Assembly (NCBI GenBank): GCA_008632985.1
Contig: QPGO01000054.1
Location: 62,001 to 126,000, forward strand
Length of the DNA: 64,000 bases
Direction of reading: 5' to 3'
Source of the DNA: Psammoneis japonica
Taxonomy: Eukaryota
The position numbers were made by a program, and so were the translations under genes. The stretch's first letter is position 1, and each line of letters starts with the position of its first letter. Shown here in pieces: positions 7,100 through 64,000 of this stretch. The notes below the pieces were generated by a model, which ran no database searches, was not told where the DNA came from, and saw nothing but the letters and a program-made list of their open reading frames with translations.

Positions 7100-7515
7100 G
7101 AAGACGTCCCCCAGGGTGGAGAGAAAAAGGGTGGGCCGAGGGTAGGGACAGACGGTTGAGAGGAAGAGTTGGCAGGTGACAGCAGGGTGGCTGAGGAGAA
7201 CAGCTTGACACGTAGAAAGATGGGTGGAGAGAGCAAAGCCTAAGTTAAGACTGAGGATTTGAGAGGCCCAGAGCAAGGGGGATGAAGTGTGGTGTGAGGA
7301 GCCGAAGAGGTCTTGAGAGAGTTGTTTCCAGGCCGCGTTGGAGTTGGCAAGGAGATCGGAGGGTGCGCGAAGAGTGAGTTGGTGAAGGCGGAGAAGGATG
7401 CTTGAGAGCTGGAAAAGGAGGAGGGCTTGTCCAGGGTGGTTGGGAGGAAGGGGTGGGATGGGATGGAGGAGGATGTTGTGGGACAAGTCAGCAGGTGGAT
7501 GCGGAAGTTTCATGT
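7100..7515 (-). mobile_element. Possible 3' fragment of a non-LTR retroelement ORF
   Basis: Strong purine/pyrimidine strand skew unlike neighbouring genes; Leu/Ser/Pro-rich frame (LLANSNAAWK...WASQILSLNLGFALSTHL); sits at the edge of a TpA-depleted domain. Family assignment rests on recollection only. Confidence 0.25.
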
Positions 7516-7534
7516 TGACATCCAGAGTGAATGC

Positions 7535-8700
7535 TCATCTGTCCAATGCTTGTGGCACCTCCTTGAGACAACCTTGTGGGAGCAGCTGTTGCTCTGCCTC
7601 TGTGATCAAAACAGTCTCAACTGTGGTGCCATCTTCTTGCTCAGGTGGAGGGGATGACAAGAGCGCATGACTGAGGGTCAAACTGGGATTGGCTGGTGTC
7701 TCCTTGTTGGCAATGCAGACGGCACCTTTCAAGAAAAACAGAAACATGATGAGCGACTGCGAAAGAGGAAGTTGGAGCTTGGGCACAACATGGTGCATGT
7801 GCAAGACTGCTGGTGCTCGTTCACTCTCTTTGATTCCTCCAACTGCTGCTCTGACACCTTGATTTTTGTGTCTCTTTTGGCAAGTTGCACATGGAGTCGT
7901 TTGCATTCTAAATTCCAACTCGAGTTGCTGGATCTTGCGGGCATTGGAATTGTCAGTGCTCTTTTCAGTTGCGGAAGGTTTTGCATTTGCTCCACATCAA
8001 GGTTCAGGGCCTCTGTTGTTTGCAGTGTGCCCTCGACCATCTGGAGGGACACTTTGCTGCTCAAACTCTGTGGCTGCAGCTGTCTTGGCTTTGGTGGGTG
8101 GAAGGTGGGACAAGAGTGCACGGTGGAAACTCTTGTTGCGTTGCTCATGCATCTTGCCTGTGAAGAGTTTCACTGTGATGCTTTTGCCATGGTGTTTTTC
8201 TTGACATGCAATGGCACACTCCATGGCTGCGGCTGCCATGTCCTCCAAACACAAGAATTCGTCCCCGGTCTTGGTGACTCAAAAAGATGAGAGGCAACAG
8301 ATCGAGTCTTTTAACTGCTCGGCAAAGATTCTCCTTTGGGGTCCGGCTCGCATCAACCAATGCATTGACTGCCTCTCCAAGTTGACATTTGATAACATGC
8401 TTGCCATTGTGGCAGCACTCCTTGCGATGTACGCTTTCGGTGACAGCCGCGACGAGATGTGCGATCTCGCGTGTCATTGGTGTGCCTTTTGCTTGCGTGC
8501 AGCTGAAAATGACTCCCACAAACTCATCTGTTGAGCATGATAGCATGGTGCTCGTTCCTGCTGCTATTCTAAAATGCTGATACGTCACCATGATGCTGTT
8601 ACGGTTTGAGCGACTCACGACTTGCTCGGCTCGGCTTCGATGATCGGCTCTCCGACTCTTTGACGCTTTGCTCTCGGCAGGTGGTGCAGGGCAGTGCAAA
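7535..8700 (-). pseudogene. Degenerate gene or TE-gene remnant, TpA-depleted
   Basis: Successive broken frames (8145-8699, 7997-8254, 7729-8148) that are almost Tyr-free and Cys/His-rich; only one TpA seen in 7501-7920 while several CpG remain. Confidence 0.6.
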
Positions 8701-18601: not shown

Positions 18602-20093
18602 ATGAAGGGGAAAAGCTGCATTGCGTTTGTTTTGTTCTTGATAATATCATCCTGTTATGAAGATGTCGAAGGGTTTTCTTCGGTCGTTGGTCCAACGAGA
18701 ATCAGACGGCATTTATTGCGACTGCATGCCGACGACACCGACAGCAGCAACTCGGGTGAGGAGCATGGCGGCAGAGATGGACTTTCGAGAAGAGACGCCA
18801 TTGGTCTTGGTGTAACCGGCATAGTTTCTGTACTGGGAGGGAGTCAGCAAGCTTCTGCCTTTCCGTTTGGCGACAAGGACTCCCCATACAAACCCGCAAC
18901 TCGGCCCATGGCATATCGCGTGGACTCCACCAAGCCACCGACACTGCTTCCTCTCAATGCGAGAAAAGAAATTGCAGCTCTCAAGGGTATCGGACGTGGA
19001 CTGGGTACCAGTAAGGATCCTGTTATTGACGATCGAATCAATCTAAACAACGTGCTCAACAAGGCGGTTTACGGAACAATTGACGCGGTCAACTCTGTCG
19101 TTGCGCCAAAGGGCGATGAATCTAAATCAGGACCGGGGTATGCGTCGTTTGTATGCATGGGAGTCCCCAAAGACATTAGCAGTGAGGATATTGACTTGAC
19201 TCTTAGTCTGTTGAATGAAATTGCAAAGGCACGTAGCACCAGCGATGACATGGCCTTGGGTTTGTCGTTTGCACCCCTCAGCACACAGAGTGCGCTCGAC
19301 AGCTACATTCAAAACGGCAATGAACAAACCCTCACGGAAGCAATGACGAAATCGTCCGTGTCAGAATCAACTCTACAGCTATACTTGCCCTTGATGAGAT
19401 TTGCTCAATCTCGCAACGTTGCCCTCTTGGCGTTGGCGCCCGAAGCCGAGGATATTGAGACGGTTCGCAGTCAGGGACTTCAAAATGTCAATGTCGATCG
19501 CCGTGCCAACTACGTTGCAGACTCGGAAGGCTTTATAAGTTTGACGCAGGACCCGAAATTCAAACTGTACGCGGATCGATCTCTCTTGAAGGATTTTAAC
19601 CCCGATGCATCGTCCAAACAGGATAATCAGGGTAATTTCTTTGCGGAACGAATCCTGGTGCACGAGACTGCCGCCACGGCTGCGGCTCGCTATGCCGCCG
19701 CCAAGCCCGAATCGTTAGTAGCCATGGTTGTTCCGACTCCTGACGTTCGGTTCCTTGGTGGTATCAATGGAAGAATTCCTCGTCTTTGTCAATTCTTTAA
19801 TCCAGAGACAAACAAGGTGAACGAAGAAGCAGTTACAACGATACTCTTAAACCCGACAGCCAAGGTACGTCAAGTCTGTGTATGTGTTCTAAGATTGTAG
19901 AGTCTTGTGTTTTAGCTTAATTGCTGTCTGTGGTTTCTGCTGAATGCGACAGGAGACTTTGTCGTTGAGTCGATACCTACGGCTTGAAATCGGAACAGCG
20001 CCAGACACTTGGCAATATCAAAGCAAAGTTGCAGACTATCTTTGGTTTTCGAAAATGCCAAAAGTTAACACGATCCCACGGCTTATGAATTAG
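18602..20093 (+). CDS. Plastid/thylakoid-lumen-targeted protein, probably ChaN/DUF399-like; intron about 19865-19953
   Basis: Signal peptide ending VEG|FSS, twin-Arg SRRDAIGLG...ASA lumen signal, LYLPLMRFAQ and FFAERILVHET; GT-AG intron; last exon ends VADYLWFS...RLMN*. Confidence 0.7.
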
Positions 20094-20955
20094 CTATTAC
20101 TCTAGTAGAGAGCATTTCCTTTTCACTGTGGTCACGTGCGCCTGCAGCAAAGTAGCAGCTCGCTTGTGGTTGGACAAAGCACTCGCTTCTCCCAACCCAG
20201 AGCTGGACAGTAGTGCCAAAGGTAGGAAAGGTCGGAGCATTGTCTTTGCTTTTCAAAGCAATGATGGGAGAAGACACAAGAACTTTTCTGGCGCGACCGA
20301 CATCTCTCTAGATCTCTGGAGTGTACTCCCTAGACGGTATCCTCCTCCCACCACGTCGTACATTGACCATACCAAGGTGTCTTAGTCCTTATCGGTACAC
20401 TTTCGCTTTCATAGCGGTGTCCTGTGACGAGATGCATCGGAAGCCTCCTTGAAAAGTTCCCGGAAGAGCTTCTCAAGAAGATCACCAAGGCGCAGCGCTG
20501 TGGTGTGAACGGGCGTCTTATAAAACTCGGCCAAAGTCGTCCGTGACGATACTACTGGGATGTATCTTGGAGCGTCCGACTTTAGGGAAGATTATTGGTT
20601 TCAGTTCAATCGCGTTCGTGCTTGTGTGAAACCGGCAAACTACTCAATTTTCAGGGAGAAGAAGCCGAGTTGTCATCCCAATGAAGGCAGCAGAGTGAAG
20701 AACATATTCGTAAATGAGCATAATGTGGCTGGATGGAATGATCTTGTCAATTCTTGGTCAATTGTATTCTTTCTGATCAAGCCCCTCCTGCACTCAAACG
20801 CGACCTTGCTAATCTTGCCCTTTTAGAACTCAATCATGATCATACGGACCTCAACCACTGCCATGTTCTCTTGATGCTAGATAGTTGCTTTCCTTCATCA
20901 CAACTGCAAGCCCGTCTTCTTGGGTATAAATCACATTGAACATCCTATCAGCTAA

Positions 20956-21764
20956 TCAAAGAATCCCAGAGAAGCAGTCCATGTTGACATCAATTTTCCC
21001 GCCGGATGCTACAAGAGAGTCTACCAGGGTTTCCTGATCTTCAACCAAAAGAAAGAAGTCATCTCTTTGCTCATCGCGGCTCTTTTTCATTTCTTCGATG
21101 AGGGTTTTGGCATGATTCGGCCTACAAACAAACGGATATGCACCTGGAAAGCCCGGGTCAAAAATGCAACATCCCACCAGCTCGTTCTTATCAGAGCTGC
21201 GTAACTGCAGCGGTATCCGGTTACCAAGCTCCCGAGCCTCCAAAAATACTCCAGGGAACAGTCCTAACGAAGATTCGATTTCTGCTTCTTCCTCTGGCAT
21301 CACGGGTCTACACTCTGTCAGCCCTTCTGATGATGACAGCGTGCTCAAAATGTCCCATGTCAAATGTACTTCTGCTGCACCAAAACAGCGCTTCAGTCCA
21401 AACTTATGATACAATGCTACCGCTGCTTTGTTTTCGGGTACCACATGCAATCTCCAGCGACTGCATTGACGTGCCTTGAATTCCTTGACGACTGCATTCA
21501 GCAAGGCTGTGGCCACACCACGCCGCCTGTAACTCGCATCGACCATGAGATATTTCACTTGACCCTCTTCTGACCCAGTCGCTGCCCACCACCAAGTGTA
21601 TCCAATGGTTTTGTCGTCTAATTCCGCCACGAGGCTTGTAGGCATCATCTCCCTTGTCCAGCGCTCCAACCGTGGGGGCGGATTCGGATCGTCGAGCACG
21701 AGCCAAAGAGCCGCAACGTCAGCGTAGTCCTTCTGAGTTGCACTGCGAATGTGAAGCGCCATCA
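20956..21764 (-). CDS. GNAT family N-acetyltransferase, intronless
   Basis: Acetyl-CoA motif LMVDASYRRRGVATALL and LHVVPENKAAVALYHKFG; second domain FDPGFPGAYPF. Confidence 0.9.
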
Positions 21765-22266
21765 TTAGCGAGGTTATTGTCAAAAACGATAAGGAGAACA
21801 TGCATTGGAGAGGGATTTACGTGTCATTCCTCTCGCTTTTGCGTTGTTGTTATTGTTGTTTGTGTTGTTTCTTCTAAAACAGCAGAACCCGGAAACCATT
21901 CTCACAACATTATTTTGAACTCGCAACAGCGATGGGGTCACAACAATCGCAAATGAAACAAACAGATCTTCAAACGCTGTGGGACGTGGAGAATGCAGCT
22001 GATTAAGATGGGCCAGTGACCCAAAGGCTCATTGGGCCTGTTGGAGCTCAGACATGAGACGCTCAAAGAGCCGCTCAAGCGGTGTGAAGCACCTTGCAAA
22101 ACCTTTGCAAAAAAGGCTGCCCTCACCTCACCTTGGTCCTGGATGTCAGCAGGCATTCAGCATGCACTCAAAAAAATGCAGAGGCTGGCCCTCACATCAG
22201 AGAGGTAAGAAAGAGTGCATGAAATGCAGGCCACTGTTTGGCACTTTTGCACAGTGAGCACACTCT

Positions 22267-22677
22267 CTAATTCATTCTCATGTGGGCGCCCACCACTGCT
22301 GACTGAAATGCATTTCGCTCATTGGCAGTTGATCTTTTTTGTTTGTTGTTTCCACTTTCTTTTGGCGTGCACATGACTGTGCCCCAGGACCAAATTGTTT
22401 TGTTTTTTGGGTCTTGACTCAAGCACAACAACAGCTGTGACTGCCCGGCATCATTTTGTTCAAATGAAGACAGAGTTTCATTTGATTGTTGCCACACAGA
22501 CATTTTTCCATCAAGGAATTTTTCAAAATCATCATTGAATGTTGGCATGCTCGTTTGTCAGCCAGGGAGGGCAATGTCCAGAGCAAAGTAACCAGAAGAA
22601 AGCCACTTGGTCCATTGCATGAAACAACTTGTGTCACAGTTTTTTTGTCCTTGTTGTGAGACTTCCATTTGAATTTC
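22267..22677 (-). pseudogene. 3' part of a degenerate gene interrupted by the copia element (5' part at 28461 to about 29000)
   Basis: Removing the element joins two copies of an approximately 148-bp coding repeat (KFKWKSHNKDKKTVTQVVSCNGPSGF and KFVRKSHRNDKKTIVAQVTAHNGPSEF). Confidence 0.6.
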
Positions 22678-23010
22678 AGTTGAACCAGCAAATCAATGTC
22701 ACCAAACAGAAATCCCACCAGGCTTTCTGTGCTGCTTGTTGCACTTGCCTTGGTTTCTATGTCAGCTGCAGGTTGCCTGTGGTGCTGCAAAGCTTCTAAA
22801 CTGATGGTGCAAATGAGCACGCACCTGTCAACACTGAATGACAAATCTTGTGAACCAAATGATTCAATCCAAAGAGTGAGAACAAAATGAAAAACAAGGG
22901 TTGGAGATCAATGATGGTTCATTCTTGTTGAAGATCATTGTCATTCTTTACAACATCAGGACTCACCCACACATGTCGGAATTCCCTTTTTGACATCACA
23001 AACAGGATGC
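22678..23010 (-). repeat. 3' LTR of the copia element
   Basis: Aligns to 28117-28460 (tgtgctgcttgttgcacttgc, ggttgcctgtggtgc, ctgaatgacaaat, gatcaatgatggt); preceded on the minus strand by the purine-rich gacaggagtg. Confidence 0.85.
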
Positions 23011-26000
23011 ACTCCTGTCATCCTTTTGATTCTTAATTGCCTGTGATGGCTTGCTTAAACTTTCAGAACTTCTTGCCCTGCAACGGCTTTGTCATGAAGT
23101 CTCCAAACATGCCATCAGTTGGACAACACTGTGCTCTCAGGTTGCCCTTCTTTGCTTGATCAGCAATGAAGAAATGCCAAATGTTGAGTGTCCCAGACTG
23201 TTTCCCAGCACTCTTGCACCCATCAGTTGCCAGCAGTGTGGCACTTTTGTTGTCCTGACATGGGACATTCTTGTCAATTGGACAACCCTGGTGTTCCACA
23301 AACAACTTGCTCCTGAACTCCAGCTGGCTCAGCTTCTGTGCTGCTTTGGGCATTGAGCTCCTGTTGTTTGAACATTGTCTGTGCCCCTCCATCACCCATG
23401 GTCACAACTCCCCCTGTGCAGCTTTTAAAGTCCAGGTTCACCGCAAATGATGTGTCCACATGCCACTTGACAACTTGGAGGTCCTTTGCACTTAAAAAGT
23501 GGCAACTTCATTCCTTGTCCAGTTCAAACATTTGACACAACAGACTGGTTTCCCCCAATCCTTGTTGGTGAGTTCACTCACTTGCAATTGTGCTGCAGCA
23601 GCAGTTGGGTGCACATCTGTGTGGCCTCTCTTGGAAACAAACAGTCACTTGGCCACCCCTCTGTGGAAGGGTTGTGCTTTCTTCTTGGTCAGCAGTTGCA
23701 TGCTGCCAGTGTCAAACAGGTTCTCTGCAGCTGGCATCGTGGCAACATCCACACTCTTGATCTTCTCTGGGAACTTGTTGATCATCTTCTTGACACAGCC
23801 ACTCATGTCAACCTTCATTTTGCCCTTTGCACTGAAATCCAGGGTCATCCCCAGGCAGTTGTGCCTCTTTCCTTGAACAACAATGACCTCATTGTGGCTT
23901 CTGCACATCTTGTTGAGCCAGCTCAAGAATTTGTCATTGACCTTTGGGTTCCTGTGGCTTGACAACAGGTTGTCCACATGGAAATGAATCATGTGCTGTT
24001 TTCCATTGACATTTCCATTGGCAATGCAAGGATCACACAGGTTGAACTTAAGCCCAATTTTCTCCAAGTCTTTGCAGAATTGCTTGCACCACAGCAGAGC
24101 CATGACTGACATGCCACATGAGTCCCATGCAGCCCTGATGACTTGGACATGAAGGATGACTCTCTTCCCTTCTCCAGCCAGGACCACACATGGTCCATGT
24201 GGGTTGAAATCAATGCTCACAAGCATGTCAACCAACACTCCTGCAATCTTCATCATGATCTGGTCTTTGCCCTCCTTGGCAGGCTTTGGGATCAAAGTCT
24301 GCACAAATGTGTTGGGTGCATCAGTGTGCTCATTGTGTCATGCCCTTCTGCACCAGCATCAACGTAGGCTGTTGTTGGTGTTCCCTCTGGTTGTGACACC
24401 ATTGGGCTGGCTCAGTTGTCTTTGTCCAGCCATTGTCTTGTTGGTTTCTCATTGTGAACCTTTTGACCTCTTCTGCGACCATCTTGCTTCTCCACAAGGA
24501 ACACAAGAGCTGCCACAGCCCTTTTCCTCTCAGTCAGATTCACATCTTTAACTGACATTGGTGCAAAGCACACACTCTGTCATGGAATTGTCCAATCTCT
24601 TTTTCTGAGGCATCATGCCCTTTCTGGCCAAATGCTTTTGGACCTTTGTGCAGCAAATGCTTCTGGGCAAAGGAAACACCCTTTCCTGATTGGAGCTGGT
24701 CATTGATCTTGCACATGAACTGTGCCATTGTCATTTCCACATTTGAGTTGTGTTCCATGTCCTTTGGGTTTGGACTCATGTTTGTTCACAAATGGTGGCA
24801 GCACTCAAGTTCACTCCATTTACACTCCTCTTCAGTGGTGTTTGCCACTCCTGCAAACCAAACCTTTTTCTTCTTGTTGTTTGCCTGCAGGTGTGCTGGT
24901 GTGCCACAGCATTGCCAGAGGATCTGCCACTTCTGGTCCTCTTGGGTTCATCTTCTGATTTGTCTTCATCTTGGGAATCACCATGTCTTGCAACTCATCA
25001 CTGTCCTTTTTTGCTTCAGTGTCATCATCATCATGACAATTGCTTTTGGCTTTTGTGCTCTCATGCTCCTGTTGATTGGGTCTGGACCTTCCATTTGTGA
25101 GAATCTCACTCACTTCCTCACATTCATTGTCTGGGTTTTCTTCTTCATGATCTTAGTCATCAGAGTTTTGTCCTCATTTTCTTCCTCACTGTTGTTGCTG
25201 TCACTGTCATTGCCCATGTTGTCTGCTCCTGCAGTCCAATCAGCATTGCACATGTTGTCTCCACATTTGCCTGTAGATTTAAAATCTTTGATGCCTTGTT
25301 TGGTGATGCCATCTTCTTGACCACTTGTGCATGTGTGTTGGCAAGGGGTGCAGCAGTGCACTTGCAAGGGCTCAGGAGTTTCTTCATGTGCAGGTTTGTG
25401 GCGCAGCATCTGCTCTTTGGATTGTCAAAGTGTGGTTGCAGATGAACACTGACAGTGCCTCATGTGTCCATTGTGTTCATTGGATCTTTCCAGGCATGAG
25501 ACAGGACAAGAAATTCTCCAAAGGAAAACCAAAAGTGTTTGTTGCAGTTGAGGTTTCTGCATTGTGTGGTGGTGTGTGGGCTGTTTGAGTGTCAGCAATT
25601 TCTTCCTTTTGTAAGTGCATGTCAGTCATGACAGTGTTCTTGATTGCAGCATGCTTGTTGCACATTAACTTGGGTGATGCCTTGTGTGGTGGGTGGTGTG
25701 CAGTGGCTTGAATTTGCTCCTTGATGGTTTTGATGCTCTGCTCAACTTTCAAGCACAGTCCTTGGCATTTGTGCCAAAACATGGCCCTTGGTGTTTGCAG
25801 AAATCAACTCCAGATTCATGCCATCAGCAACTCTTCCCACAGCACCTCCTTTAACTTGGAATTGCACTCAACAAAATTGATCTTGAACAAAGCCATGTTG
25901 TGCTGTCACAAAATTGCATCCAGGGCACAGCACACATTGTCGTGCCACTTGGACTTCAGTTTCATGCTTGATTGGCATTTGACCGTCCAAGCAATCATGC

Positions 26001-28116
26001 GTGTGCTTCAATTTAACTTTGCATGCTTCCATGATGTCGATGCAGAGCATCATGCCCTCTCTTTGCCACTTGCAAATCTCCAGAGGAGTCACAATCATGA
26101 TGTTCCTCTCATGGGAATGATGTGCTTGTTTGATCTTGCCTTTCAAGGCATCCACTGGTTGGCTCCACATGGCCACCATCTTGTCCATGAAGTCTTTGGG
26201 TGCAAAGGACAAGTTCTTCTTCACCTGAGTGGATCACAAAAATTGCTTGAAGTCCCTCACACTTGGAATTTCAGCCTCATGATGCAGTCTGAGCATGTGC
26301 TCAGCATTTGCCACCTCCCTCTTGCAGCAGCCTGTGGTGGCACTTTGATCCATGGTCAGAACTGTGGTTCCTGATGCACTCCTGTGCTCCTTCTTCTTCT
26401 TCTTCTTCTTCTTCTGTTTCAACAGCATGCTTGCGTGAGACTCTTTCTCTTGAAACTCGTTGACACAGTCAAAAAAACTTCTCATTGGGTCTGAAAGCAC
26501 ACAGCCTGATGTCAACGATCTTGACTTGCCAGTCTTCTCATCCAGCAGGCAGAACTCATCTGAAGCTTGGTTGTTGCATGTGATGCAGCGCTTTTTTCTT
26601 CATGTCCTTCAAACTCAGGACATTTGCTGTTGCATTCTCTGACCCAAGCTTTGTGTCTCCCCATGATGGAATGGCACAGTCTTTGTCCAGTGCATCCACT
26701 CCTGCATTTGTGGGCAGATGATTGTTGTTCTTTGCCGGTTGCACAGTGTGCACAAACCTCCAGCTTGCTGCCATGCTGAGGGTCAATCATTGTTGAGGAT
26801 GATCTCATCCATCTTGATGTCCATGTTGGCTTGTGCCATGCTTGTTTCTGGTTGCTCACTTGTGAGTTGCAGCTTGTGCCATGCAGCACATCTGTTTCTG
26901 GCAGAACAGCTTGGTCTGTTGGATGTTGTGGTGTTGATGCTTGCACTGTCACCATCCACGAGTCTGTGCATGACTGTGTCCCCTGATGTCCAGCTTCTGT
27001 CCTGTGTCCTGAAACCAATTGTTCTGCAATGTGTCACCTTTGTGCAAGCAGCTTGGGGACTTGTGGCATGGCTCTGGTCTTTGCTGTTGCTGTTGTCATT
27101 GTTGCCATCCTCCTTCTTTTTGCCCTTTTTGTTGCTGTTTCTTGTCCTGATGCAGCTGTCCTTTGGATGGCTCAGCAATGCATTCGCAGCTGTCTCCAAG
27201 GTCTTTGGGCAGGAGGCATCCTTGTCTGGACTGCAGTCCCTCACAAAGCTCTTCTTGAGGCCCTTGCAACAATGACTGTTGCTGTGCTCTGAGAACAGGT
27301 GTGTCATCCACTTCTTGCATGCCTCATCCTTTCGCTGTCTCTGAGTGTCAGGATTTGCTTCTTGTTGTTGTTTTGTGTTGGCAATGAACCCATCAAACAT
27401 TTTCTTTCCCTGGCCTTTGCTCACAGCATCCTGCCAGTTCTTGAACCTTGACAAACAGTCATCACCTGTTCTTTTGTTCTCTTGCTGCCTCACATCCAGG
27501 AGGTTCTTCAGTGACTTGGTCAGCATGTGGAATGGATGACAACCTCTCATCGAGTCAAATGTCAGGGTCTGAATTGGCCTCAGCAGCTCAATCAGATTGT
27601 CCCTCAGTGCAGGACAGGCTGGATCATGTTGCACTTGTTGTCTCATTTGCCTGGAACAACAGTCATCCCATGTTGTGAAGAATGCAACAGTCTTGTTCTC
27701 TTTGAACTGCACAATCTTCTTGCGGCAATCATGCAATTCCTCCATGGTGCACCTCCACTCTGGCTCCTTGTTTTTGCACTCACACTGTTTTGGCAAGCTT
27801 TGGCAATTGGCGCCTCCTGGACCTGGTGCTGTCTTCTGGGACATCTTCAGAGTGGGTTTCTAGCAGTTGAAGTCCTTGCATTTTGTGTCCTCCAGTGATC
27901 TTGCCAGATGGACTCCTTGCTCATTTTCCTTCTGCATGTGTCAAATGATCCATTCAACATTGAAGGATGGAACTTCAGCTCAGGCTGAGAGCACTTCTTG
28001 TTGTTGGGACTGTCTGACCTGTGGCTCTTGTCATCTCTGTCTTGGCTGCCAACTTGGCCAGATTGCTTGCCACTCCCTCTGCCACTCATGGCACAGGAGA
28101 TCTCAGGGGAAGTGAA

Positions 28117-28460
28117 TGTTAAACCAGCAAGTCGGTGTTGCCAAAAGGGAATCCTTGCTGGGCTTCATGTGCTGCTTGTTGCACTTGCTGCCTTGGCTTC
28201 TGCATTGGCTTTGGGTTGCCTGTGGTGCCAATGTAAAACCTCTAAACTGACAACACAACAGGCACCTGTTGATGCTGAATGACAAATTGCGCAAACCAAC
28301 AAATGGCTCACTTGAAAGAGCAAAAACAAAACAAAAAACAAAGGCAGGGGGATCAATGATGGTGCACTCTTGTCAAAGATCATCATCATTCTTTGCTGTG
28401 CCAGGATTCAAAATTTCTTTTCTTCAACACTTCCAGGTCCCACATCTGGGTGTCCCAACA
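28117..28460 (-). repeat. 5' LTR of the copia element
   Basis: Canonical TGTT...AACA termini (tgttaaacc...cccaaca), immediately upstream of gag start MSGRGSG at 28089. Confidence 0.88.
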
Positions 28461-29049
28461 ATTTCACCCTGTCAACTTTTTCTCTCCTCCCTTGGCAAAG
28501 TCCAATGCAGTGTCAGTGGGCAGCCACAAATTCACTTGGTCCATTGTGTGCTGTGACTTGTGCCACAATTGTTTTTTTGTCATTTCTGTGAGACTTTCTC
28601 ACAAATTTCACCTCATCAATTTCTGCTTTCTTTGTTTTGACTGATGTCGACAGGGTGAGATTTGTGTGCACACCCCACAGGTGAGGAGAGGGCTGGAGGT
28701 GGCCATGGGGAATTCTCCTGAGCACCTTGTGGCTCCCTTTCTCAGTTCAAGAATGGCAGCAGATGGAGAGGAAAAAGTGTCAGACCCCTTTTCCAGCAAT
28801 TTTGAAGACTTTGCTGGTGATGAAAAAGAACAAGAGGCCATCTCTTCTCACTGATCACAGCACAGTGCAGGGAGAATGGAGCTGCTGCTGGCAATGACTC
28901 TCTTTGCAAACAATGAGCAGAAGGTGGCTGTGATGTCACCAGAAAAAATTGCACTTGTGTCACTCTCAAATGCAGTCACAAACAACTGAAATGTTTTTGC
29001 AACTTGGGGGGGGTGCAATTTTGAATCCACACAACTTTTTTCAGGTCAA

Positions 29050-32000
29050 GAGAAAACACAAAACAAGGAGGCCAACTTGCAACAATGCAAAGCAGCACCA
29101 CAGCATGTCACACACAACACAAAAGTTGTGAGAAAACACAGCAATTGCAGCTCAGAGACAGACCAGTCTCTGAGTGAGCAGACGCCGATGATGACAAGGT
29201 TGGCAGAGACATTGTCAAGGGTGAGAGACCACATCAAAGAAAAAGAGCCTCTCTGAGCATCACACTCACATTTGATGCAAAGCAATTTGAGGAAACAGGC
29301 ATGCTGTGTGAAGACAAAATTTGCTGCAAGTGTCATTGAGCAAGATGGAAAACCAACTCCCACATCTTGCTGTTTCTCATGATGCAGGGGTGCAAGAAGA
29401 CAAAGAAGCAAGAACTCTCTGCTCTGAGGCCAACAGATGTTGCAAGCAAGCTTGAGAGCATCATCAACAAGGGTTTCATGGAAACAGAAGTTGTCATGAA
29501 GAAGGGAAAGTGTGCAAGACACTCAAGCACTTTGCAGCAAGCAACTGGAACCCAGCAGAGGAAGACACAGGCAGAAGATGATGCAAAATGCCAAGGAAGA
29601 GCAAGGGATGGTTGATGAGAGCCAACAAGTTCTTCTGCAAGCTGTTCATGGAAATCAAACAAGACATTGCTTCAAGTGAATGACTGCTCCTCTGCTGACA
29701 GGAAGATTTGCACAAAAGAGCTGCAGCCAACTGTTGAAAGCAAACAGGAAAAGAGCTTGATGACTTGGGTGGTGAAGGAGACCACATGACAAGCTGCACC
29801 AAGATCTGTGAACTGGAGCCAGTGGTGGCAGTTTTGCAGACAAAAACCCACAAGCAGAATTTTTTTCATTGTTCAACATGAGATTCCAAGGCAACGCTCC
29901 ACTCCAGAAACTGCACTTTAGACAGCAACCATCAAGTTGAACATTTTGGGGGTGCAAACTTGGTGAGTTTTGCTGCACACTGACTGGGTTGACAAGATCT
30001 TGATTTGAAATCATGCACTCACACTCACACACCTTTTCTTGGACTGCAGTCCACTTTTCTTGGACTGCAGTCCACTCATCAGTCAGGGGGGGGGGGAGAT
30101 TCCCAAATTTGCCCCCCCCCGATGCCATGCAGTGGCTTCAGCCAATGCTCAGCAGACAACACAAACACTCAAAAAGTGCACTGGTCAGCAACACAACAAC
30201 TGCTCTTTGGGCATGCACAAGCATTTTGCAAATGCAAAAAGCAAAGTTCTTGCTGGCTGTTGTGGCAAATGTCCCCATTGGAAGCACGGGCTGCTTCTTC
30301 AACAGGCAGCCACCATTTTACATCAAGCTTGCTTCCAAAGACATGTGCAGTCAAATGCATGTGTGGAGAAAAGCCACCAAGAACCCAAGCCTTCAAATTT
30401 GCAAGGCAATCATGTGTGGATGATGTTCAATGACTGAACTCCAGCAGATTTGGCTTGCAACAAGAGCAAAACAATCAACTTGCGCACCTTTGGCAAAGAG
30501 CTGAAGTGGCCACATCAACAAAGATGATGATGTGTTCTTTTTCAAAAACATCAATGGAGATTTTTGTGAGCTCCATGCAACAACAACAAGCAAAGTGATT
30601 CAGAAACCCACATTGTTCCTGTGGTGTTTGCCATTTCAAAATTTTTGAGAATGGCGGGGGGAAACCAGCAGCGGTGTTTCGCTCTCACATTTGTGTGGCT
30701 TTTGCAAACCCCAATGCAGTGCATCAGTTGATTTGGCACAGTGCAAGCTCCAAACTCCAAGATTTCTTTTCCTCCAACCTTCATGCACCTCACTGCATTG
30801 TTGCATCATGTGTCACCCCCCTCACACACCCACAATGGCAGAAAAAACCACAAAGCCCACCATCACTGCAGTTGCATCACACAATGTCACAGTTTGGGAT
30901 GATTGGGCTCAATCAATTCCATGGCTGCACATTTGTGAAATTAACAGAGAGGGCTTTGACCACCAAAAGCAAATGCTGAGTCAGAATTTGACCACAGCAG
31001 CACACAAAAAGCAGAAAAAGAGCCCAGAAGGAATTGGAAGCAGCACATGAAGCACATCCTTTGCAAGACACAAGCAACAAAAAATCAACACAGCAGTGGC
31101 TGTTTGAGACTTCTGAATTGTACAAAATGGCAGCCTTTGGTGCATGCATTGGCAAAGCATGTTTTGCAGGGCACAATGCAATTGACAAGCTTTTTTGTGG
31201 TGGCTTTTTTGGTGGACATTGTGATGCAAGTTCTGCACAAAGCTGCCCAAGGCATGCGTGGTGCACAGCTTGTCATGGAAATGGCTTTTTTTTTAAGAAA
31301 TGGCAAGAAGAATCAGAGTGCATGTGAGCCATCCTCTTTTGCATTGCAAACACATTGGCACACCTTTCCTCTTGTTCAAAATGCTGTCTGTCTCATTTGG
31401 CGCCTTTTTTGGAATGGCACAAATGTGGATTGTGTGTTGCAATGGATCCTGGCACTCCAGCTGAGATTTGTTTAGCCTGAATGGCATCCATGGCCGGGGA
31501 TGACAATGTCTTGGCTGGCACTTTGTCCATCCTTGCCCTGTGCTGGTGTGCACATTGCTGAGTTTTGTCCTTCGCTGAAGACATTTGGAGATGTGCAACG
31601 TCTTTCTTTGGTTGCCAACTGTTGTGCAGTTTAATTCTAGCCTCACTCTTCACCCACTGCTGCTGTTCATCTCCAATCACAGTCAGCATCTTCATGCAAG
31701 AAATGGACAAGCAGTGGTGCAGTGGTTGGCAAGCTGCAGAGAGATTTGATCCATGAACTGCTTTGTGTCCGATTCCAGCACCACTTTGCCCCATGCACAA
31801 GAGAGTGAGGGGATTGGTTTGTCCCATGAAATTGCTGCAGCAGCTGGCAGGGAAGTCATCAGTGAATCCACAATGTTCACATCAAACAGTTGCTGTCATG
31901 CAAGCAACATCACCTCCTGTTCCATCACTGGGACAGGTGAAATTCAATGAGTTGATTGTGCAAAATCAGAGTTGCAAGTCATTTGAGCCACTCACAAATG

Positions 32001-33950
32001 CCAATGATTTTCACAGTTTGGAAGAAAATGAGTTGGCAAAAATGCATGCAAGCATGGCTGGCAGAATTGCAAAACTCTCACAAGCCTTGAAAGAGCCCTT
32101 CATGAAGCAGAAGCAGCCCAATGAGGAGTTGCAACAAGAATTTGAAGCCAGGCTCAACTGCTTTGAGAAACTTCATCTCAAGCAACATCAACAAAATGGC
32201 ACTGAGTCACAACAAGAGTTTGGTGCAAGGAGAAACTTTTTCAAGCACCACAACAATCAACAGCTGGACAGAGAGCAAGAGACAGCATTTTTTTACAAGC
32301 CCTTTGGTTGCCATGCAAGAACACAACAAAATTGCACCAACAAAAATGACCAATCCTGGGGAAGCATGCAAAGCACAAGCAATTCCAAACAGTCGCCATG
32401 ATTTGATGCGTCCAAGGTGCCAACACTGCATCAGATGCCAAGGTGCAATGCCTGCTCTTTTGTGAAAAGTGCAGATGAGACCATTGACCCCAGCCTGCGT
32501 GGGTGCACAACTGCAGAACTGTCCATGGGCAATCAAATCAGAAGACTGTTGTCACCAAAGCAGATGACCTTTTGCAGGTTTTTGGAGGCATTGGTTTTGT
32601 CTGAGGGGCGTGCCTTTTTAGGTGACATCTTAATGGCATTTAGACCAAACAGGTTGCTTGTGGGAAGTGACATGAAAGCATCCATTCCCAGCCTTTCAAA
32701 CAAGTGTGATGCAAAAGCCACAGAAGACTCCTTCAAAGCAGATGAAATGTCAGACTCACAGCACACATGTGCAACTGCAGCTTTTGAAATGATGGTTTTG
32801 AAGACAAGAACTTGACTCAGGAACAATTGCAGTGTGTCTCAAAAAAATTGTGCATGGCCATTGAATCAGGACAAAGCCAATGACGAGGCTGCTGCCCAGG
32901 GCCCCATTGGAAGGTTGTTGCTGGGGCTGACACAATGGCGACACAGGAAGCTGCCATGAGAAAAATGGTTTCCAGCAAAGAGCTCTCTCACTCTGATGAA
33001 ATGCTTGCTTTGGAGTTGCATCAAAAAGTTGTTGCCAGAAAGCACACAAGACCATCAATCAGAAGCAAGCCTTGACCTCAAACATCCCACAAGGGAAAGC
33101 ATCAAGCAATGCAAGGAAAAGCTTTGACACACTGGTTCATTTGCTGCTGAGGCTGCAAGCATGACCCAACAAGAGAGAAAGCCATCTTGAGTTGCTGTTG
33201 ACAATGTGGTGTCCAGCGCAGACTTTGATGTAGACCAGTCTGATGTGCACATCAAGTTGTTGTCAGGGGAGGACATCATGCCCAAAAAAAGGAGTTGTCA
33301 TCACTGGAAATTCAGCACATTGTTGCAGACAGAGGCTTGGAGAAGTCAGAAGAAGTGACGCTTTGGGAAATGACCAAGAGACAAGATCTTGCTCATGAAG
33401 AGACCAAGAGAAAATCAAGGCAGCTGCTGCTTTGCCAGATTTTTGTCTTGAACAATGACTTGCAGCTCAACAGCAAGAAAGCTTTTGTCTGATTGGTGTC
33501 CAGGAGTCAGGATCTTGCTTTGGAAGAGGAGGCTCTTGCCAAGTCTACAAGCCAACAAATTTCATTGAGCAAATGCTTGGCACAAAAAAGAAGCTGCAAT
33601 GCAGAAGGTGGTGTCAGGGGATGCTGTTTCTGATGAGGAAGTCCAGCTGCCTTTTTGGGCATGCCAGAAAATGTCCGAATCCAGATGAAATGTGCTTGGC
33701 AAGTCTCATGTGACAAGAGTGAGAGGTGACAGACATCAAGACAGGAGAGGTTGCTGTGATGATGCTTCAGAAAGTGCAGGCAGGAAAATCAATGAAAGCA
33801 AGAAGGGAGGCCATGCAGAAAATGGTGTGTGGCAAAGAGCTCTCTCAACAGAAGACACTTTAGACAGCTGGTGCAATGCAAGCCACAAACTCTCTCCAAC
33901 ACAAATGCATCCACAAACAAAATGAAGGTTGGGACAGAGTCTGGCTTCAC
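29050..33950 (+). pseudogene. Degenerate coding remnants of unidentified TE(s) or gene(s)
   Basis: Chain of broken plus-strand frames with protein-like composition once some Cys/His are read as Tyr (31034-31327, 31763-32401, 32417-32815). No family motif confidently recognised. Confidence 0.45.
30033..30074. repeat. Exact 21-bp tandem duplication, each copy containing the 14-bp palindrome TGGACTGCAGTCCA
   Basis: cttttcttggactgcagtcca at 30033-30053 and 30054-30074. Confidence 0.95.
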
Positions 33951-34183
33951 CAGTTGCTGTTCTGACAAGGACAAGAGCAAAGAAGAAGACTTCTTTGACC
34001 CCTTTTGAAAACTCAATGTCACTTAAGATCAGGAGAGCAGACTTGGACTTCCAAACTCCTCTGCAGAGTGAGAGGATCCCATGATGGTGTGCCAGCCAAC
34101 CTGACAACCGCAAACTGAGGTCATTGGTGGTGTCTGGTGGACCCCATGTGACAGTTTGAGAACTGTGGCTGGGCATTGCAAGG

Positions 34184-34467
34184 CCCAGTTTCTGCCCACC
34201 ACCAAGGGCATCCAATGGTTTTGTCATCTGGCTCCACCACAAGGTTTGTGGGCATGTCATCATTTCCCTTGTCTGGTGGTGCTCCAGCCATGCTGGGGGC
34301 GGGGTCGGACGGTCGAGGAGCACGAGAGCCAAAGCAAGCTGCAACATCAGTGCAGCCCTTCTGAGTTGCACTGCAAACATGATGAAGTTGGAGAGTGGTT
34401 CACGTGTTGTTGTGATGCTTTTTGACCTCACTGCTGCTCCCTCGTCCGGCAGCCAAACCCGGAAACC
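34184..34467 (-). pseudogene. Truncated, mutated duplicate of the GNAT 5' CDS and upstream region (source 21574-21897)
   Basis: Shared blocks ctgcccaccaccaag, atccaatggttttgtc, ccttctgagttgcactgc, ttggagag, aacccggaaacc in the same order and orientation. Confidence 0.92.
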
Positions 34468-34999
34468 TTGCAAGGTGTGGTTTTGTCGCAGACAATGCTT
34501 TGCCATTTGCCATTGCCCATTGCCAATGGCAGACTCTAGAGCAGGCCCAACGCTGCATCTCGCTCGCGATTGCTCATGATCGCGATGACACAGCACCGCT
34601 TTACCTTGCACTCTAGAGAGTGGACTCTAGAAGCAGCGGGAGCATCCATTGAGGGCTTGCAGTGCACTGATGCAAAGCAACCCATCGCCCTACGAAACCA
34701 TGAGTTCAGCATCATCTACGCTTGTCCGGGGGATGATCCATCGTTGCCATGAAGTCAAGCCTTCCAAAGTGTGAGAAGTGTTTTCGCAAGGACGGCGTGA
34801 CATCTGGGCATCCCAACCCATGTTTCCCGGATTTTTCTTTTCTCCCATGCCCCATGCGAGACTTTGTTCTTGATCCGACCCTTTGCTGTCTCTGCCACTC
34901 TTGCTCCCCTCTTGGGAGAACGAAGCGATGCCATTGCTGCCCGTGTGTTTCGTGTCATGCCAGCACCAGCACGGCTTGTGCACAACAAGAAGGTTGACA

Positions 35000-36090
35000 A
35001 AAAATGACAACAACAAAGACGGAGTGGGAAGCACGGCGAGGAACTCAATCATGCATGTTGTGCCTTCCTCAAAGACTCCAAAGTTCACGCCTCCGTCTGA
35101 CATGCAAAGTGCTTTTGTGGGTGCCATTGCCTTTACGTGCAGCACCATTTCAGATGTTGTGTCGGCTGCCATGATGCCTGAGCAAATGAAAAAAAAGGTT
35201 CGAAGCCATGGCGCGACTCAAAGCTCACCCATTTGGATGCATCTGGTGTGGGAGATGAGCTTGAAGAGGTGAGCCAAGATGTTGCATGGACAACAGAAGC
35301 TGACTCATTCCCGCTTTTTCAATTTTCAGGCCCTCATGAAACCCATGTTGTGAGGGCGTTTGCTTGACAATGTGAAGATCTTGAATGACATCCAGGAGAA
35401 GAATGACGCTGATCATTGCGAGAAGGCTCAGTCTCGCAATGTCAGCAACATTGATGAAGAAGCCAAAGAAGGAAATCGATGCATGAGGTTCGCTGCAGCA
35501 GGCAAGGCGCGCACGCACACAAGTCTTCAATTGTGCTTTTCCAACTTTTGTTTGACTCACTCAACCATCTCCAAAACATCGACATTCCCAGCTTGCACAA
35601 CCGAAATGATTCGGAGCGCCATTGACAAAGAGGTCCATCCAGAAGAATTGCAAGATCAAAAGACGGCGATTGCTCGTCATGCCATGACATCTCCTGAGGA
35701 CGTGAAACTCTTGTGCGCAAAGGACGACAGCAATGACTGCCATGTTCTGCACCACTTTGTAGCTGTGGACACAGAAAACGAGTCAATCGTGTGGTCATTG
35801 CGAGGTGCACCATCAATGTCTGGATCCATCGTGGACATTCAGGGCATGGAATGTGAGTGGCAGGTGTTTCTCATGCTGCGTTCTCACTGCAGGCACAGAA
35901 CGAACCCGGTCATGACAGGCGAAACCTGCAAACAAGGAGTCTCAATGGCCCATGCGCACAGCACGTTCAGTGATCACTTTTACTTTACACCGAGATTGCA
36001 GACTTTTTCGCATCCCGTTGGTTTTCTCAACCGCTCAGGCAACTGCATGAGGCATGCCTGAGCATGGGGCATGGCCAAGATCCCGCCCCC
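35000..36090 (+). pseudogene. Class 3 lipase (DAG-lipase-like) pseudogene
   Basis: CMRFAAAG (cf. YMRFA.AAYG), HFVAVDTENESIVWSLRGAPSMSGSIVD (cf. IVLSIRGT.S..D), GMAKI; no catalytic GHSLG found; stops and frameshifts. Ends approximate. Confidence 0.65.
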
Positions 36091-37787
36091 AGGTGTTCCG
36101 CACCGGCACATTATGACAATCGCGAACAAAACCAGTTTTCTCATCGCCAAGCTGCGTTTCTTCCTGTTGTGAATCGAAGTGGACCAGGCAAAGGCAAGCC
36201 GGAGCACAGCCGCAATTCACTCATCTCTCGTGCAGAGCAATGAGTCCAGATGCCCCGTCGAAACTGGGTGCTGCAGCACCACAGCCGCAGCCGAGAAAGT
36301 TCGACAGCAGGCACTTGTGGAATCATCTTGAAGCTCTTGATCAATGACATCGTTGTGATTTTTCCGGCGCTCGACATGTTCACAGGTTGCGCACCTTTCG
36401 ACAACATCTTTAATTCTCTCCGCTTCATGAAAGACTGCTGAAGACAAGACGTCTACTCGCAAAAGCAACAGTGCGTCGAAAACAGCAGCGACGGCATCAG
36501 AGTGCCGTGCGCGAGAGTTACGACCGTCAACATGGTCCATTGACGTACGTACGGAACAAATGGCATGCAAATAAAGATTGCTGTGCTGCACTTTTAGTCT
36601 TTCCACTTCTCTGTTGTAAAGGTTCAAAGTGTGTTTCGAATGTTTGAAACACGCCAATGTCAAAAGTTGATGGAAATTGGTCGCGTGGGATTACATTGCC
36701 TCAAGAGCACCATCATTAGATGGCGCTCAAGCTTTTTCCTATTTTTGGGGTGGAAAACCACCCCAAAAAAAAGAAAAAGGGGGGACGTGCTGCGGAGACA
36801 GCAAGAGAAACTTGCGAGTCAACCGCGTGCTAAATCAACACTCCCTGCGAGTGAAGACTTGCCGCACCACATCGCTGATGCAACGGAACCCCAAACCCCG
36901 CGTTCCGTCAATGGAACGATCTGCTCAGTGAGCTTTTGCTGCTTCGCAGACGAACGCTGCTGTCTGTTTCAACAGCCGTGACCTGACGGGTCAAGCGAAC
37001 AGGCAACTTCCTGCGGTCAAAGACACAGGAGTGACATGGGCTCCAGGCCGGAGACACACATTTGATTTGCCCTGACCTCCGGACTTAACTGGCAACACCT
37101 GCGCTGCCGATTTCAACAGCACACTTGTGCTGAAGCAACTTTGACAAAAAAAGAGAGACAAACCGCCAGCATTGGAATCAAGCTCAAGGTGAGCTGAGGA
37201 AAAAGAAGGACTCAATCACATCGTGCGGGTTGACAAATTGAAACTGAAGCAGTTCCCTCTTTTTGTCGCTCCTCCGACATCGTCAGTTCCCATCTCGAAT
37301 GATGAAGCGAAAGAGAAGTGCTTGATCCTTCTCCACGGACGGAATGCCAGCCTGAAACAGACGGTGTCGACGCTCCACAGGTGGGGTTCTTTACACTTCT
37401 CTTCACCCATGGCACCATCATCGTTCCCGCACCAATCACTGATGATTCCCTTGCGGCGTTTGTGCGGAGATGAACAGATTTTTGAAAACGGGCGTCGTTT
37501 GAAAATGGAGGGAAATGATGTGGCTGGAAAACCAACGGGTGTGTTTTACTGTCACATTTTGTGTAATTTGTGCGAACCCCTACGACGTCAGCCGAACTTC
37601 AAACAGCGCGAGCTCCGAACTCCAGATTTCCTTGTCTCTCCACTCCACACACACCGCACCGCATATTCCTACTACCGTACTACCCATGGTGGACGGCGTT
37701 CGTCATCATGTCAATGTCGTGCTGAACTTCACCGGTATCATAACATGCTAAAAGCACCCTTAATCATAGGCTGAAGTAGGGATAAGA

Positions 37788-38625
37788 ATGTTTCATCTCA
37801 TGAGATCGTATCGGTGTGGCGGATCAAAAGGTCGGCGATACCGATGGATGACAGGCAGATCGGCATCGAGTCGTCGGCCCAATCCGTTGTTTGTCAATGC
37901 GAGCAACGCCCCGGATGACTTTGATCCATCCGGAGCTGTGGTTTACGACTCCTTTGTATCACATGAAGAAGGAGAATCTCTAGTGTCTGATATAATGGCT
38001 CGAATGCGTCGGTAAGCTACGTGAGCTTCATCCAGAAAAGTGCCTTTTTACTTCCGACACATACACACTCACAACCTACTTCTGTTGATGCAACGCCACT
38101 AGCCGTCGGTACGAAAAGGGACACTGGGATGCAGTCATTACGGACTACAAAGAAGTGGAGCTCTTGGATGAATCCGTACTTGGCGACGCTTCCAGAACTG
38201 CAATGGATCGTGTTCGAGAGCAATTGTTGACCCATCATTTGCCCACTTCCAGAGAAGAAATTACGTTTCTGCCGTGTCACGCGATTGATTTGAAAAAGGA
38301 TGGCGAGCTCAAGGCTCATGTCGACTCTATCAAATTCTCTGGAGATGTCGTTTCCGGAATTAGTCTGCTATCTTCCAGTATTATGAGACTCAGACCAGAA
38401 ACAACGCAACAACGAGGCAATGATTCAGAGGAGCAGTCGGAAGGATGGGTCGACTTGCATCTTCCACCCTTGTCACTCTATGTTTTATCAGGATCGACTC
38501 GATATCATTACACACATGAGCTACTTCCCTCTGGCTCTGTCTTTGAAGCGCCCGACGGAACAACTGCGACGGTTATTCGTGATCAACGACTCAGTGTGAT
38601 TTTTCGTGATGCCAAGGATTCGTAA
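37788..38625 (+). CDS. ALKBH7: AlkB homolog 7-like 2OG-Fe(II) dioxygenase; intron about 38012-38102
   Basis: RRYEKGHWDAVITDYKEVEL; HAIDLKKDGELKAHVDSIKFSG; SLLSSSIMRL; RYHYTHELL; RLSVIFRD. Confidence 0.88.
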
Positions 38626-63289: not shown

Positions 63290-64000
63290 TGTCTTTCGCT
63301 TTGCTATTCGTGTCGCTCGCTTTGACATGCTGTATGAAACTGAAAGTGGCATCAAGAATCGGTGTGGCGTGAGACAAAAGGAGGGATTTTGCTCTCTTAA
63401 CTTTGAAAAGTGGCGCAGCAGCTTTGTAGAGTAGGTCACAGACACAATAAGGAAGTGAGAAGGCATCAGCATGCACGGTGCTGAATGTCTGGTTCTCGCA
63501 ATTGCTGTGTTTCTGTCAGATCTCGATGTGACCAGCTGCAACGTCATGTCTCTCTGACTTGATTGCTCAACCTTGAGCTTCACAGAATGCCAACGCACCC
63601 CTTCTTGAATCACACCACCAGCCTGGGAATCCTCTCTCTCCCAACTGTGCGCAAGTGGCTGTGGGGACACACCCTCAGCACAAAAGCACAATTTTTGAAG
63701 GTTGTGGCTCTGGCGACACTTTCCTGCAGTCACACCACTGATGGTGTGAGGCTGCTTCTGTTGGTTTTGTGTGCACCACAAATTTTGAAAAGCACTCCTC
63801 TGCAGCAGCAGCAGCACTGGCATCTCTTTATCCCAGATCCTTTCCCTTCTGCACTTCTGAGAAACTCTTTGTCTGATTGCAGCCAGATGGAGGAACTCAA
63901 CAGATTGAACTCAGAGGTGACCACTGGGCTTGGAATTTGAAATGAATCACAGCCAAGACACAGGCCCAATCATCAGAGAATGACACAATTGAGTGCTCTT
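63290..64000. other. Start of another TpA/CpG-depleted degenerate domain (runs off the window)
   Basis: After about 63460 TpA is almost absent and CpG rare; translations are Cys/His-rich and Tyr-poor. Confidence 0.8.

Follow-up and report, generated by a model that had tools for sequence, protein, structure and literature searches.

TpA hypermutation of repeated DNA in the diatom Psammoneis japonica and its coding shadow in a dead copia retrotransposon

The conserved tyrosines of a dead Ty1/copia retrotransposon in the diatom Psammoneis japonica have been replaced by cysteine and histidine as a by-product of hypermutation at the DNA level: TpA steps have been turned into TpG or CpA, and the Cys/His residues are the trace of that change in the coding sequence. 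The element lies in the window analysed here, a stretch of 64,000 nucleotides of assembly GCA_008632985.1 (contig QPGO01000054.1, positions 62,001–126,000; numbers below count from the first letter of the window, and L and C numbers are our own labels for loci and contigs). A preliminary description of this DNA had proposed a process that removes Tyr; the recoding is real, but Tyr is not what is hit: every TpA is a target, in all frames and in non-coding DNA. Across the reverse transcriptase (RT)/RNase H part of the element (23063–24780) base composition predicts 112.2 TA and 97.5 CG, but only 5 of either are present; the six frames combined hold a single Tyr codon. We hold with high confidence that the change takes place on DNA after insertion, equally on the two strands and at single sites; that TA becomes either TG or CA, with loss of the target on both strands and a random end mix of Cys and His; that A before C or T is changed about three times faster than A before A or G; and that a slower CpG decay acts in the same domains, adding TGA stops and losses of Arg.

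Table 1. Positions of the features in the window
Feature	Position	Strand	Remarks
Intact GNAT acetyltransferase frame	20956..21816	(-)	normal TA and CG; unmutated control adjoining the block
Block with TpA and CpG erased	21950..34200		contains the dead copia pol
Dead Ty1/copia pol remnant	23036..26584	(-)	integrase side, then RT and RNase H; stops and frameshifts
RT/RNase H part of the dead copia pol	23063-24780	(-)	stretch under study
RNase H motif CCPT (TGT)	23117-23128	(-)	homologues Tyr in 109/120
RNase H motif IWHFF (TGG CAT)	23168-23182	(-)	homologues Tyr in 119/120
RNase H motif CQDNKS (TGT)	23243-23260	(-)	homologues Tyr in 98/120
HNCLGM (CAC AAC TGC)	23846..23863	(-)	homologues Tyr in 114/120
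FHVDNL, RT active-site motif	23966..23983	(-)	homologues HVDD; second Asp to Asn; His native
FNLCDPC (CTG TGT)	24026..24046	(-)	homologues Tyr in 120/120; P>L fits CpG decay
LLWC (TGC)	24086..24097	(-)	homologues LLWY, Tyr in 120/120
Further copia pol piece	27026..27955	(-)	same block as the dead pol; tblastn
Mutated paralogous piece of the GNAT gene	34184..34382	(-)	
Multi-copy stretch, TpA erased, CpG mostly retained	34200..37500		
TA-normal stretch	37600..38500		one mutated and one mostly unmutated paralogue

The pol remnant was located by tblastn with intact homologues as queries (23036–24872, 25307–25582 and 26030–26584), and the assignment to copia was also made by alignment to the TA-richest copy of the family in the same genome, itself a Pfam RVT_2 match (E 4.8e-10); a six-frame Pfam search of the window's own pol pieces returned no significant family. 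Two Ty1/copia features, an RVT_2-type RT and an integrase upstream of it, are present when read via sister copies, and paired LTRs with TG...CA ends and 5-bp target duplications were found in related copies; no LTR pair bounding the window's own copy was delimited. Diatom Ty1/copia retrotransposons bear the label CoDi. Our family is like them in the RVT_2 match of the sisters, the order of integrase before RT, the LTR ends and the 5-bp duplications, whereas the window copy is dead, fragmentary and enclosed in a duplicated block, and is not assigned to a CoDi group. Loss of Tyr may have destroyed the function of this copy, which also carries stops, frameshifts and HVDN for HVDD.

Homologues from other sources (the best 120 of 1,104 matches to the RT/RNase H region) define 14 columns with Tyr in at least 80% of the 120 sequences, 13 of them from an automatic tally and the 14th taken from the printed alignment list. 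At these 14 columns the window has 9 Cys, 4 His, 1 Trp and no Tyr; it retains 131 of the 162 conserved columns that are neither Tyr nor Arg, and only 3 of the 13 conserved Arg columns. All six recoded motifs claimed for the element were found in their places on the minus strand, the homologues bear out the consensus Tyr that had been assumed for each of them (Table 1), and the reading of Y>C as TAY>TGY and of Y>H as TAY>CAY is supported. The codons of P>L, R>W and D>N fit the CpG decay to which these substitutions had been ascribed; the ancestral codons in that comparison are reconstructed rather than seen. That the Cys and His residues are native to the family, or an artefact of sequencing, has in our view a negligible probability. 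The TA-richest own copy does also carry CQDNKS, IRHFF and HCPT, but the homologues have Tyr at the six motif columns in 98–120 of 120 cases; no more than 1 of 120 carries Cys at any of the 14 columns, and no more than 8 His, so that the change is derived; and sisters of the window copy show Cys or His at random at one and the same codon. Contigs from a public short-read run also match the window, spanning all 30 bins of 19000–38500, and one is identical over 23972–24251; the run may come from the window's own sample, and it speaks only against an assembly artefact.

The 91.4-Mb genome contains 158 matches to the RT piece, and the 30 loci examined form a series from near-normal TA (one copy) through loss of TA with CG largely kept to loss of both, along which the Pfam RVT_2 match fades from E 4.8e-10 to 3.9e-7, to 4e-4 and then to no match. 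Compared with the TA-richest copy, three sisters read TG or CA at 163/187, 153/188 and 144/189 TA steps and are changed at 68/303, 55/302 and 56/303 CG steps; transitions number 432, 416 and 334 against 30, 27 and 9 transversions (more than 93% transitions), and TA has become CG in only 0, 3 and 1 cases. In the reference copy 3 of 13 Tyr columns are already altered, as are about 72 inferred sites, and no pristine own copy was found among the copies examined, so these rates are lower bounds. The sisters differ in the outcome (TG or CA) of one and the same TA at 41/87, 36/84 and 25/92 sites; the outcome is thus random per site, and each Tyr codon therefore ends as either Cys or His.

TA loss is separate from CpG decay, and ahead of it. 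The wording of the preliminary description implied that the two are one process, a view that fails on copies with 76–87% of TA lost but only about 20% of CG. The genome gives the same order in a sample of 20 hand-picked 10-kb stretches on contigs C1–C150, of which 19 were used; these amount to 190 1-kb windows, a small sample biased to large contigs. The TA ratio falls below 0.2 in 77 of the 190 windows (about 40%), with none between 0.2 and 0.25; 54 of these 77 TA-erased windows are also CG-poor, and CG-poor windows with normal TA number 0 of 190. It is accordingly very improbable that methylation and deamination of CpG bring about the TA loss passively, within a single process: the window's own copy, in which both steps are erased to equal depth, could be read in that way, but deamination of 5-methylcytosine cannot alter A or T, and copies and windows with TA gone and CG kept exist, whereas the reverse does not occur in the 190 windows.

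The two LTRs of one element are identical at insertion. Twelve LTR pairs, drawn from self-matches of the copies, show 249 differences: 61 swaps between TG and CA, 60 of TA against TG or CA, 52 of CG against TG or CA, 42 other transitions and 34 transversions. The partners differ at TA-derived sites, and the change therefore took place afterwards, on chromosomal DNA. Among LTRs adjoining unmutated host DNA, some retain more TA than their partner (13 vs 6, 14 vs 4). These pairs bear on a further explanation, namely A-to-I editing of the element's RNA by an ADAR-like enzyme and its fixation by reverse transcription; ADARs prefer a 5' U (as cited in bioRxiv 10.64898/2026.01.13.699255) and the genome holds two editase-domain genes, but the LTRs of a single insertion differ at TA steps, both strands are equally affected, and a host-gene duplicate and segmental paralogues are mutated as well, all of which makes RNA editing extremely improbable.

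A second family (11 copies, L035–L045) has changed at 63–82% of 152 TA-class sites and 15–31% of 146 CG-class sites, the site classes being defined from observed states, which caps the CG-class loss at half and misses sites where all copies went one way. A>G at AA was seen at 62 of 6,934 copy-sites in this family, and outside TA it reaches at most 2.5% in any triplet. These rare A>G changes outside TA favour an A followed by C or T two- to threefold over one followed by A or G, the same 3' preference as at TA. A competing-risk fit to the two families gave relative rates by the base at +1 of 2.0/1.7 for T, 1.7/1.6 for C, 0.6/0.7 for G and 0.5/0.6 for A; the pyrimidine preference is present in each family separately, effects at +2, −2 and −3 are smaller, and TAY is changed about threefold faster than TAR. 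Since TAY (TAT, TAC) is the preferred context, Tyr codons are lost first. With context fitted, the strand ratio is 0.94 and 1.11, which amounts to no strand effect, and an apparent coding-strand bias (about 57:43) is gone. A secondary CAY target (0.11–0.12) was likewise discarded: the 11 copies give CA>CG at 54/4,827 and TG>CG at 42/3,165, and the apparent figure stems from decay in the reference copy. Runs of change on one strand were found in none of 15 copies, where many overlapping rounds could blur such patches, and distance to the nearest CpG had no influence on TA survival (0.15–0.19 kept in all four bins).

These patterns constrain the mechanism. An error-prone polymerase of the pol eta or pol iota type could fill repair gaps in methylated repeats and place G opposite T behind T, with the repair of deaminated 5-methylcytosine as its trigger; TA loss and CpG decay do occupy the same domains, A>G behind T is common to our copies and to somatic hypermutation by pol eta, and pol eta is reported to be error-prone at template TW, that is, at WA hotspots (PMC6423074). 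We nevertheless consider this explanation unlikely. The WA motif includes AA, which is nearly spared here while 63–87% of TA is changed; more than 93% of the changes are transitions, whereas one in four in vitro errors of pol eta is reported at C/G (PMC6423074); and the strand runs and patch clustering expected from gap filling are absent, as is any link to CpG distance. A diatom polymerase may have a narrower preference. The sequence cannot separate a lesion on A from a lesion on its partner T, and a third explanation places the lesion on the thymine of TpA, which an enzyme would modify, for instance by oxidation to 5-formyluracil, so that it mispairs with G. Oxidised thymine can mispair with G, and the outcome would be the same T>C/A>G change, symmetric and site by site; with no precedent at such saturation found in the literature, however, we regard modified thymine as quite improbable.

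Our own proposal is a host process that would turn A:T into G:C at TpA in silent, repeat-rich domains of diatom DNA. We rate as slightly better than even the chance that the adenine of TpA is deaminated to hypoxanthine, which is copied as G when the DNA next replicates, and that this is the work of a deaminase of TadA/ADAT or editase type, recruited to silenced (probably methylated) chromatin and not to paired homologous copies; a weaker suggestion is that the process may protect the genome from transposons and other foreign DNA. A TadA-like deaminase would be a better fit than gap filling by pol eta because of the near-pure transitions, the strict 5' T and the sparing of AA. Off-targets of TadA-derived editors are reported to be 94% A>G/T>C with a TA preference (PMC13225742), and A>G with a TA preference on DNA is described for such editors and for ADAT2/3 (PMC13225742, PMC12265680); the type of change and the preference are those seen here, but the enzymes concerned are engineered or act on tRNA. 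Against a deaminase, a long single-stranded DNA substrate should give strand-coordinated runs, and the 15 copies contain none.

The genome has 9 matches to the deaminase domain PF00383, 5 to PF14437 and 4, at 2 loci, to PF02137. By motif we take the genes to be dCMP-deaminase-like, TadA-like, ADAT2-like and RibD-like, with one more small deaminase and two editase-domain genes; no chromatin-reading domain was found on the deaminase genes, and the set looks ordinary. The second editase-domain (PF02137) gene, at C79:344558-345390 (L113/L114), has named relatives in diatoms only. This gene lies a few hundred bases from a TA-poor stretch. Elsewhere on C79 (L063:313-1785), a zinc-dependent deaminase domain shares one frame with a 2OG-Fe(II) dioxygenase. 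The diatom-wide editase-domain gene on C79 and the ADAT2-like gene on C26 are candidates for the putative enzyme. Knockouts are practical in a diatom host, which makes both enzyme and targeting testable; a natural enzyme that deaminates chromosomal adenine at TA would, if real, be new biology and a lead for tools.

The surroundings of the element show what is hit and what is spared. Over 22001–34500 the observed/expected ratio is 0.05 for TA and 0.10 for CG; outside, the values are 0.56 and 0.96. Other contigs carry paralogues, 85–95% identical, of the greater part of the block and of the copia piece in it, and the block is therefore a duplicated nest and not one fresh insertion; aligned to its paralogues, the window shows 43 TG/CA swaps in 3,632 bases and 13 in 1,313. 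The left edge of the block lies within a few hundred bases of the intact GNAT gene, and the frames flanking the block belong to ordinary eukaryotic genes (HSF, helicase-associated, LRR, ankyrin, GNAT) with normal TA. Sequences of a public run (X2) contain intron-like joints in the flanking genes and leave most of the block uncovered, which says nothing on expression. The mutated GNAT piece reads TG or CA at 4/4 TA and 8/13 CG, counted over a core of 183 aligned bases only, the alignment being unreliable outside 21574–21760. For 37501–38500, one paralogue (L052) has changed 25 of 29 TA, whereas another (L054, 93% alike) has kept 26 of 39; as the window stretch and L054 keep most TA while L052 is erased, duplication alone is insufficient. 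The co-location of TA loss with CpG decay and the existence of unmutated duplicates point to silent domains as the target, and not to pairing of copies, with the proviso that selection on working genes could look alike.

All three TA-poor stretches that were searched against the genome are multi-copy. LTR elements are not the only DNA erased: a LINE-like stretch, with weak matches to an endonuclease and to zf-RVT, has lost its TA too, as have DNA-methylase frames and the GNAT piece. Of 29 TA-poor frames, Pfam recognised three as DNA methylase and gave one a weak zinc-finger match, with nothing else, and PHROGs on 17 such frames gave a methylase in 1. Frames for C5 DNA methylases (L103–L108 on C297 and C301; L073–L075) lie inside long regions in which TA is erased and CG kept, one of them near a weak match to an FtsK-like ATPase (E 0.014). 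The TA-erased methylase regions gave only methylase PHROG matches besides this FtsK-like one, and they are possibly a mobile or viral element that carries a methylase; PF00145 has 27 matches in the genome.

The closest known counterpart is found in the rhizarian alga Bigelowiella natans, where integrated NCLDV and virophage DNA undergoes TpA hypermutation (Mettrop et al., bioRxiv 10.64898/2026.01.13.699255). According to that report, 231 de novo mutations in two integrated viral regions are nearly all A>G/T>C at TpA; the process is ongoing at a roughly 1000-fold rate and active only in some lines; RT and DDE domains are over-represented among TpA-poor coding sequences; and its authors propose an adenine deaminase (ADAT2), without proof (bioRxiv 10.64898/2026.01.13.699255). 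Judged by the sequence signature, the diatom and B. natans undergo one kind of process, in which A>G/T>C changes fall only on TpA and yield TpG or CpA, on both strands of genomic DNA. It is described there as confined to silent foreign DNA, and here strikes foreign or repeated DNA and spares the flanking host genes. The host here is a diatom, thus a stramenopile; the demonstrated targets comprise LTR elements, segmental duplicates and a piece of a gene; and about 40% of the sampled windows (77/190) are at saturation, compared with 124 clusters of at least 3 kb. CpG decay accompanies TA loss here, whereas the main text of that report mentions neither CpG nor diatoms; the TAY preference is measured here, whereas that main text gives no wider context; and the mutations were measured de novo there, whereas we read them from old copies. 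In a literature search mostly confined to papers outside subscription, no report of TpA hypermutation in a diatom was found. A process so far measured in one rhizarian alga is thereby extended to a diatom; new are the supergroup, the retrotransposons and duplicates shown to be hit, the saturation across a large part of the genome and a measured TAY motif.

In its logic the process also resembles repeat-induced point mutation (RIP). RIP, known from Neurospora and other ascomycetes, is repeat-confined, transition-only, dinucleotide-specific and post-insertion, and it kills transposons; it changes C to T at CpA or related steps, is premeiotic and depends on RID/DNMT4. The first four of these properties are common to both, but the chemistry is opposite: RIP makes TpA from CpA, whereas TpA is removed here, a direction fixed by the conserved Tyr. 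Strand-coordinated runs are absent here, and not all duplicates are hit, as the spared stretch 37501–38500 and L054 show against L052, a difference to which selection on functional copies could contribute. RIP is named in a paper on DNMT5-dependent methylation of diatom transposons (PMC9998398), the accessible part of which mentions neither deamination nor adenine. As a tentative generalization, to which we give somewhat less than an even chance, diatoms and probably other plankton would edit the adenines of their own silenced DNA with a natural base editor, a deaminase guided by repressive chromatin that acts at TAY-centred TpA until some 40% of the genome is TA-free, and this would be an A:T counterpart of RIP common to stramenopiles and rhizarians.

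TA erasure has consequences for annotation. Deletion of TAA and TAG stops had been offered as the cause of the dense spurious reading frames; the effect is real (1.6-fold) but modest, for TAA and TAG together drop from about 1.7% of triplets to 0.27% while TGA rises from about 1.9% to 2.67% and offsets most of the loss, so that total stops go from 3.57% to 2.95% (−17%). Markov controls gave 35.7 against 22.9 open reading frames of at least 100 amino acids per 12 kb; the block has 36.7 such frames per 10 kb and the gene-bearing flanks 22–25, and at 150 amino acids or more the block (10.8) equals the flanks (9.6–10.4). Because no in-frame stop arises from TA loss alone, long frames can survive in the copies, and one copy retains a frame of 1,723 codons with 13 Tyr. 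Long stop-free, Tyr-poor frames of this kind seem intact or are called as genes, and TA erasure in addition hides dead elements from Pfam and inflates LTR-based age estimates.

The Tyr-depleted, Cys/His-rich protein models that had been predicted do exist. Among the best 150 matches in public collections, 26 have less than 1% Tyr and carry Cys or His at 143 of 167 conserved Tyr positions, as against 56 of 882 in the 114 matches with at least 2% Tyr; low Tyr was the selection criterion, the Cys/His outcome was not, and the 10 intermediate matches were left out. On look-up, 20 of the 26 low-Tyr proteins were ENA, Logan or JGI metagenome-type records; one has at most 44% identity to the whole genome, and all 26 have at most 58% to the loci examined. 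Known as protein only, they probably come from other organisms. A homologue search with a short protein gave 16 matches, none of them Tyr-free, and a scan of metagenome DNA gave 1 relative among 56 candidates, with normal TA (0.48).

Some further repeats and patches were noted. A 1,077-codon open frame with one Tyr (L078:1919-5149, C1) is multi-copy (80 matches) and hence a repeat family; it had no Pfam, PHROG or usable protein-atlas match. Identical or nearly identical matches on the contig pairs C41/C317 and C26/C397 suggest leftover haplotype duplicates in the assembly. Within the window, 36519–37108 is a repeat of about 600 bp with at least 30 further copies at 83–90% identity, some of which retain TA, and smaller TA-poor patches beyond the main block lie at 7500–8500 and 63500–64000.
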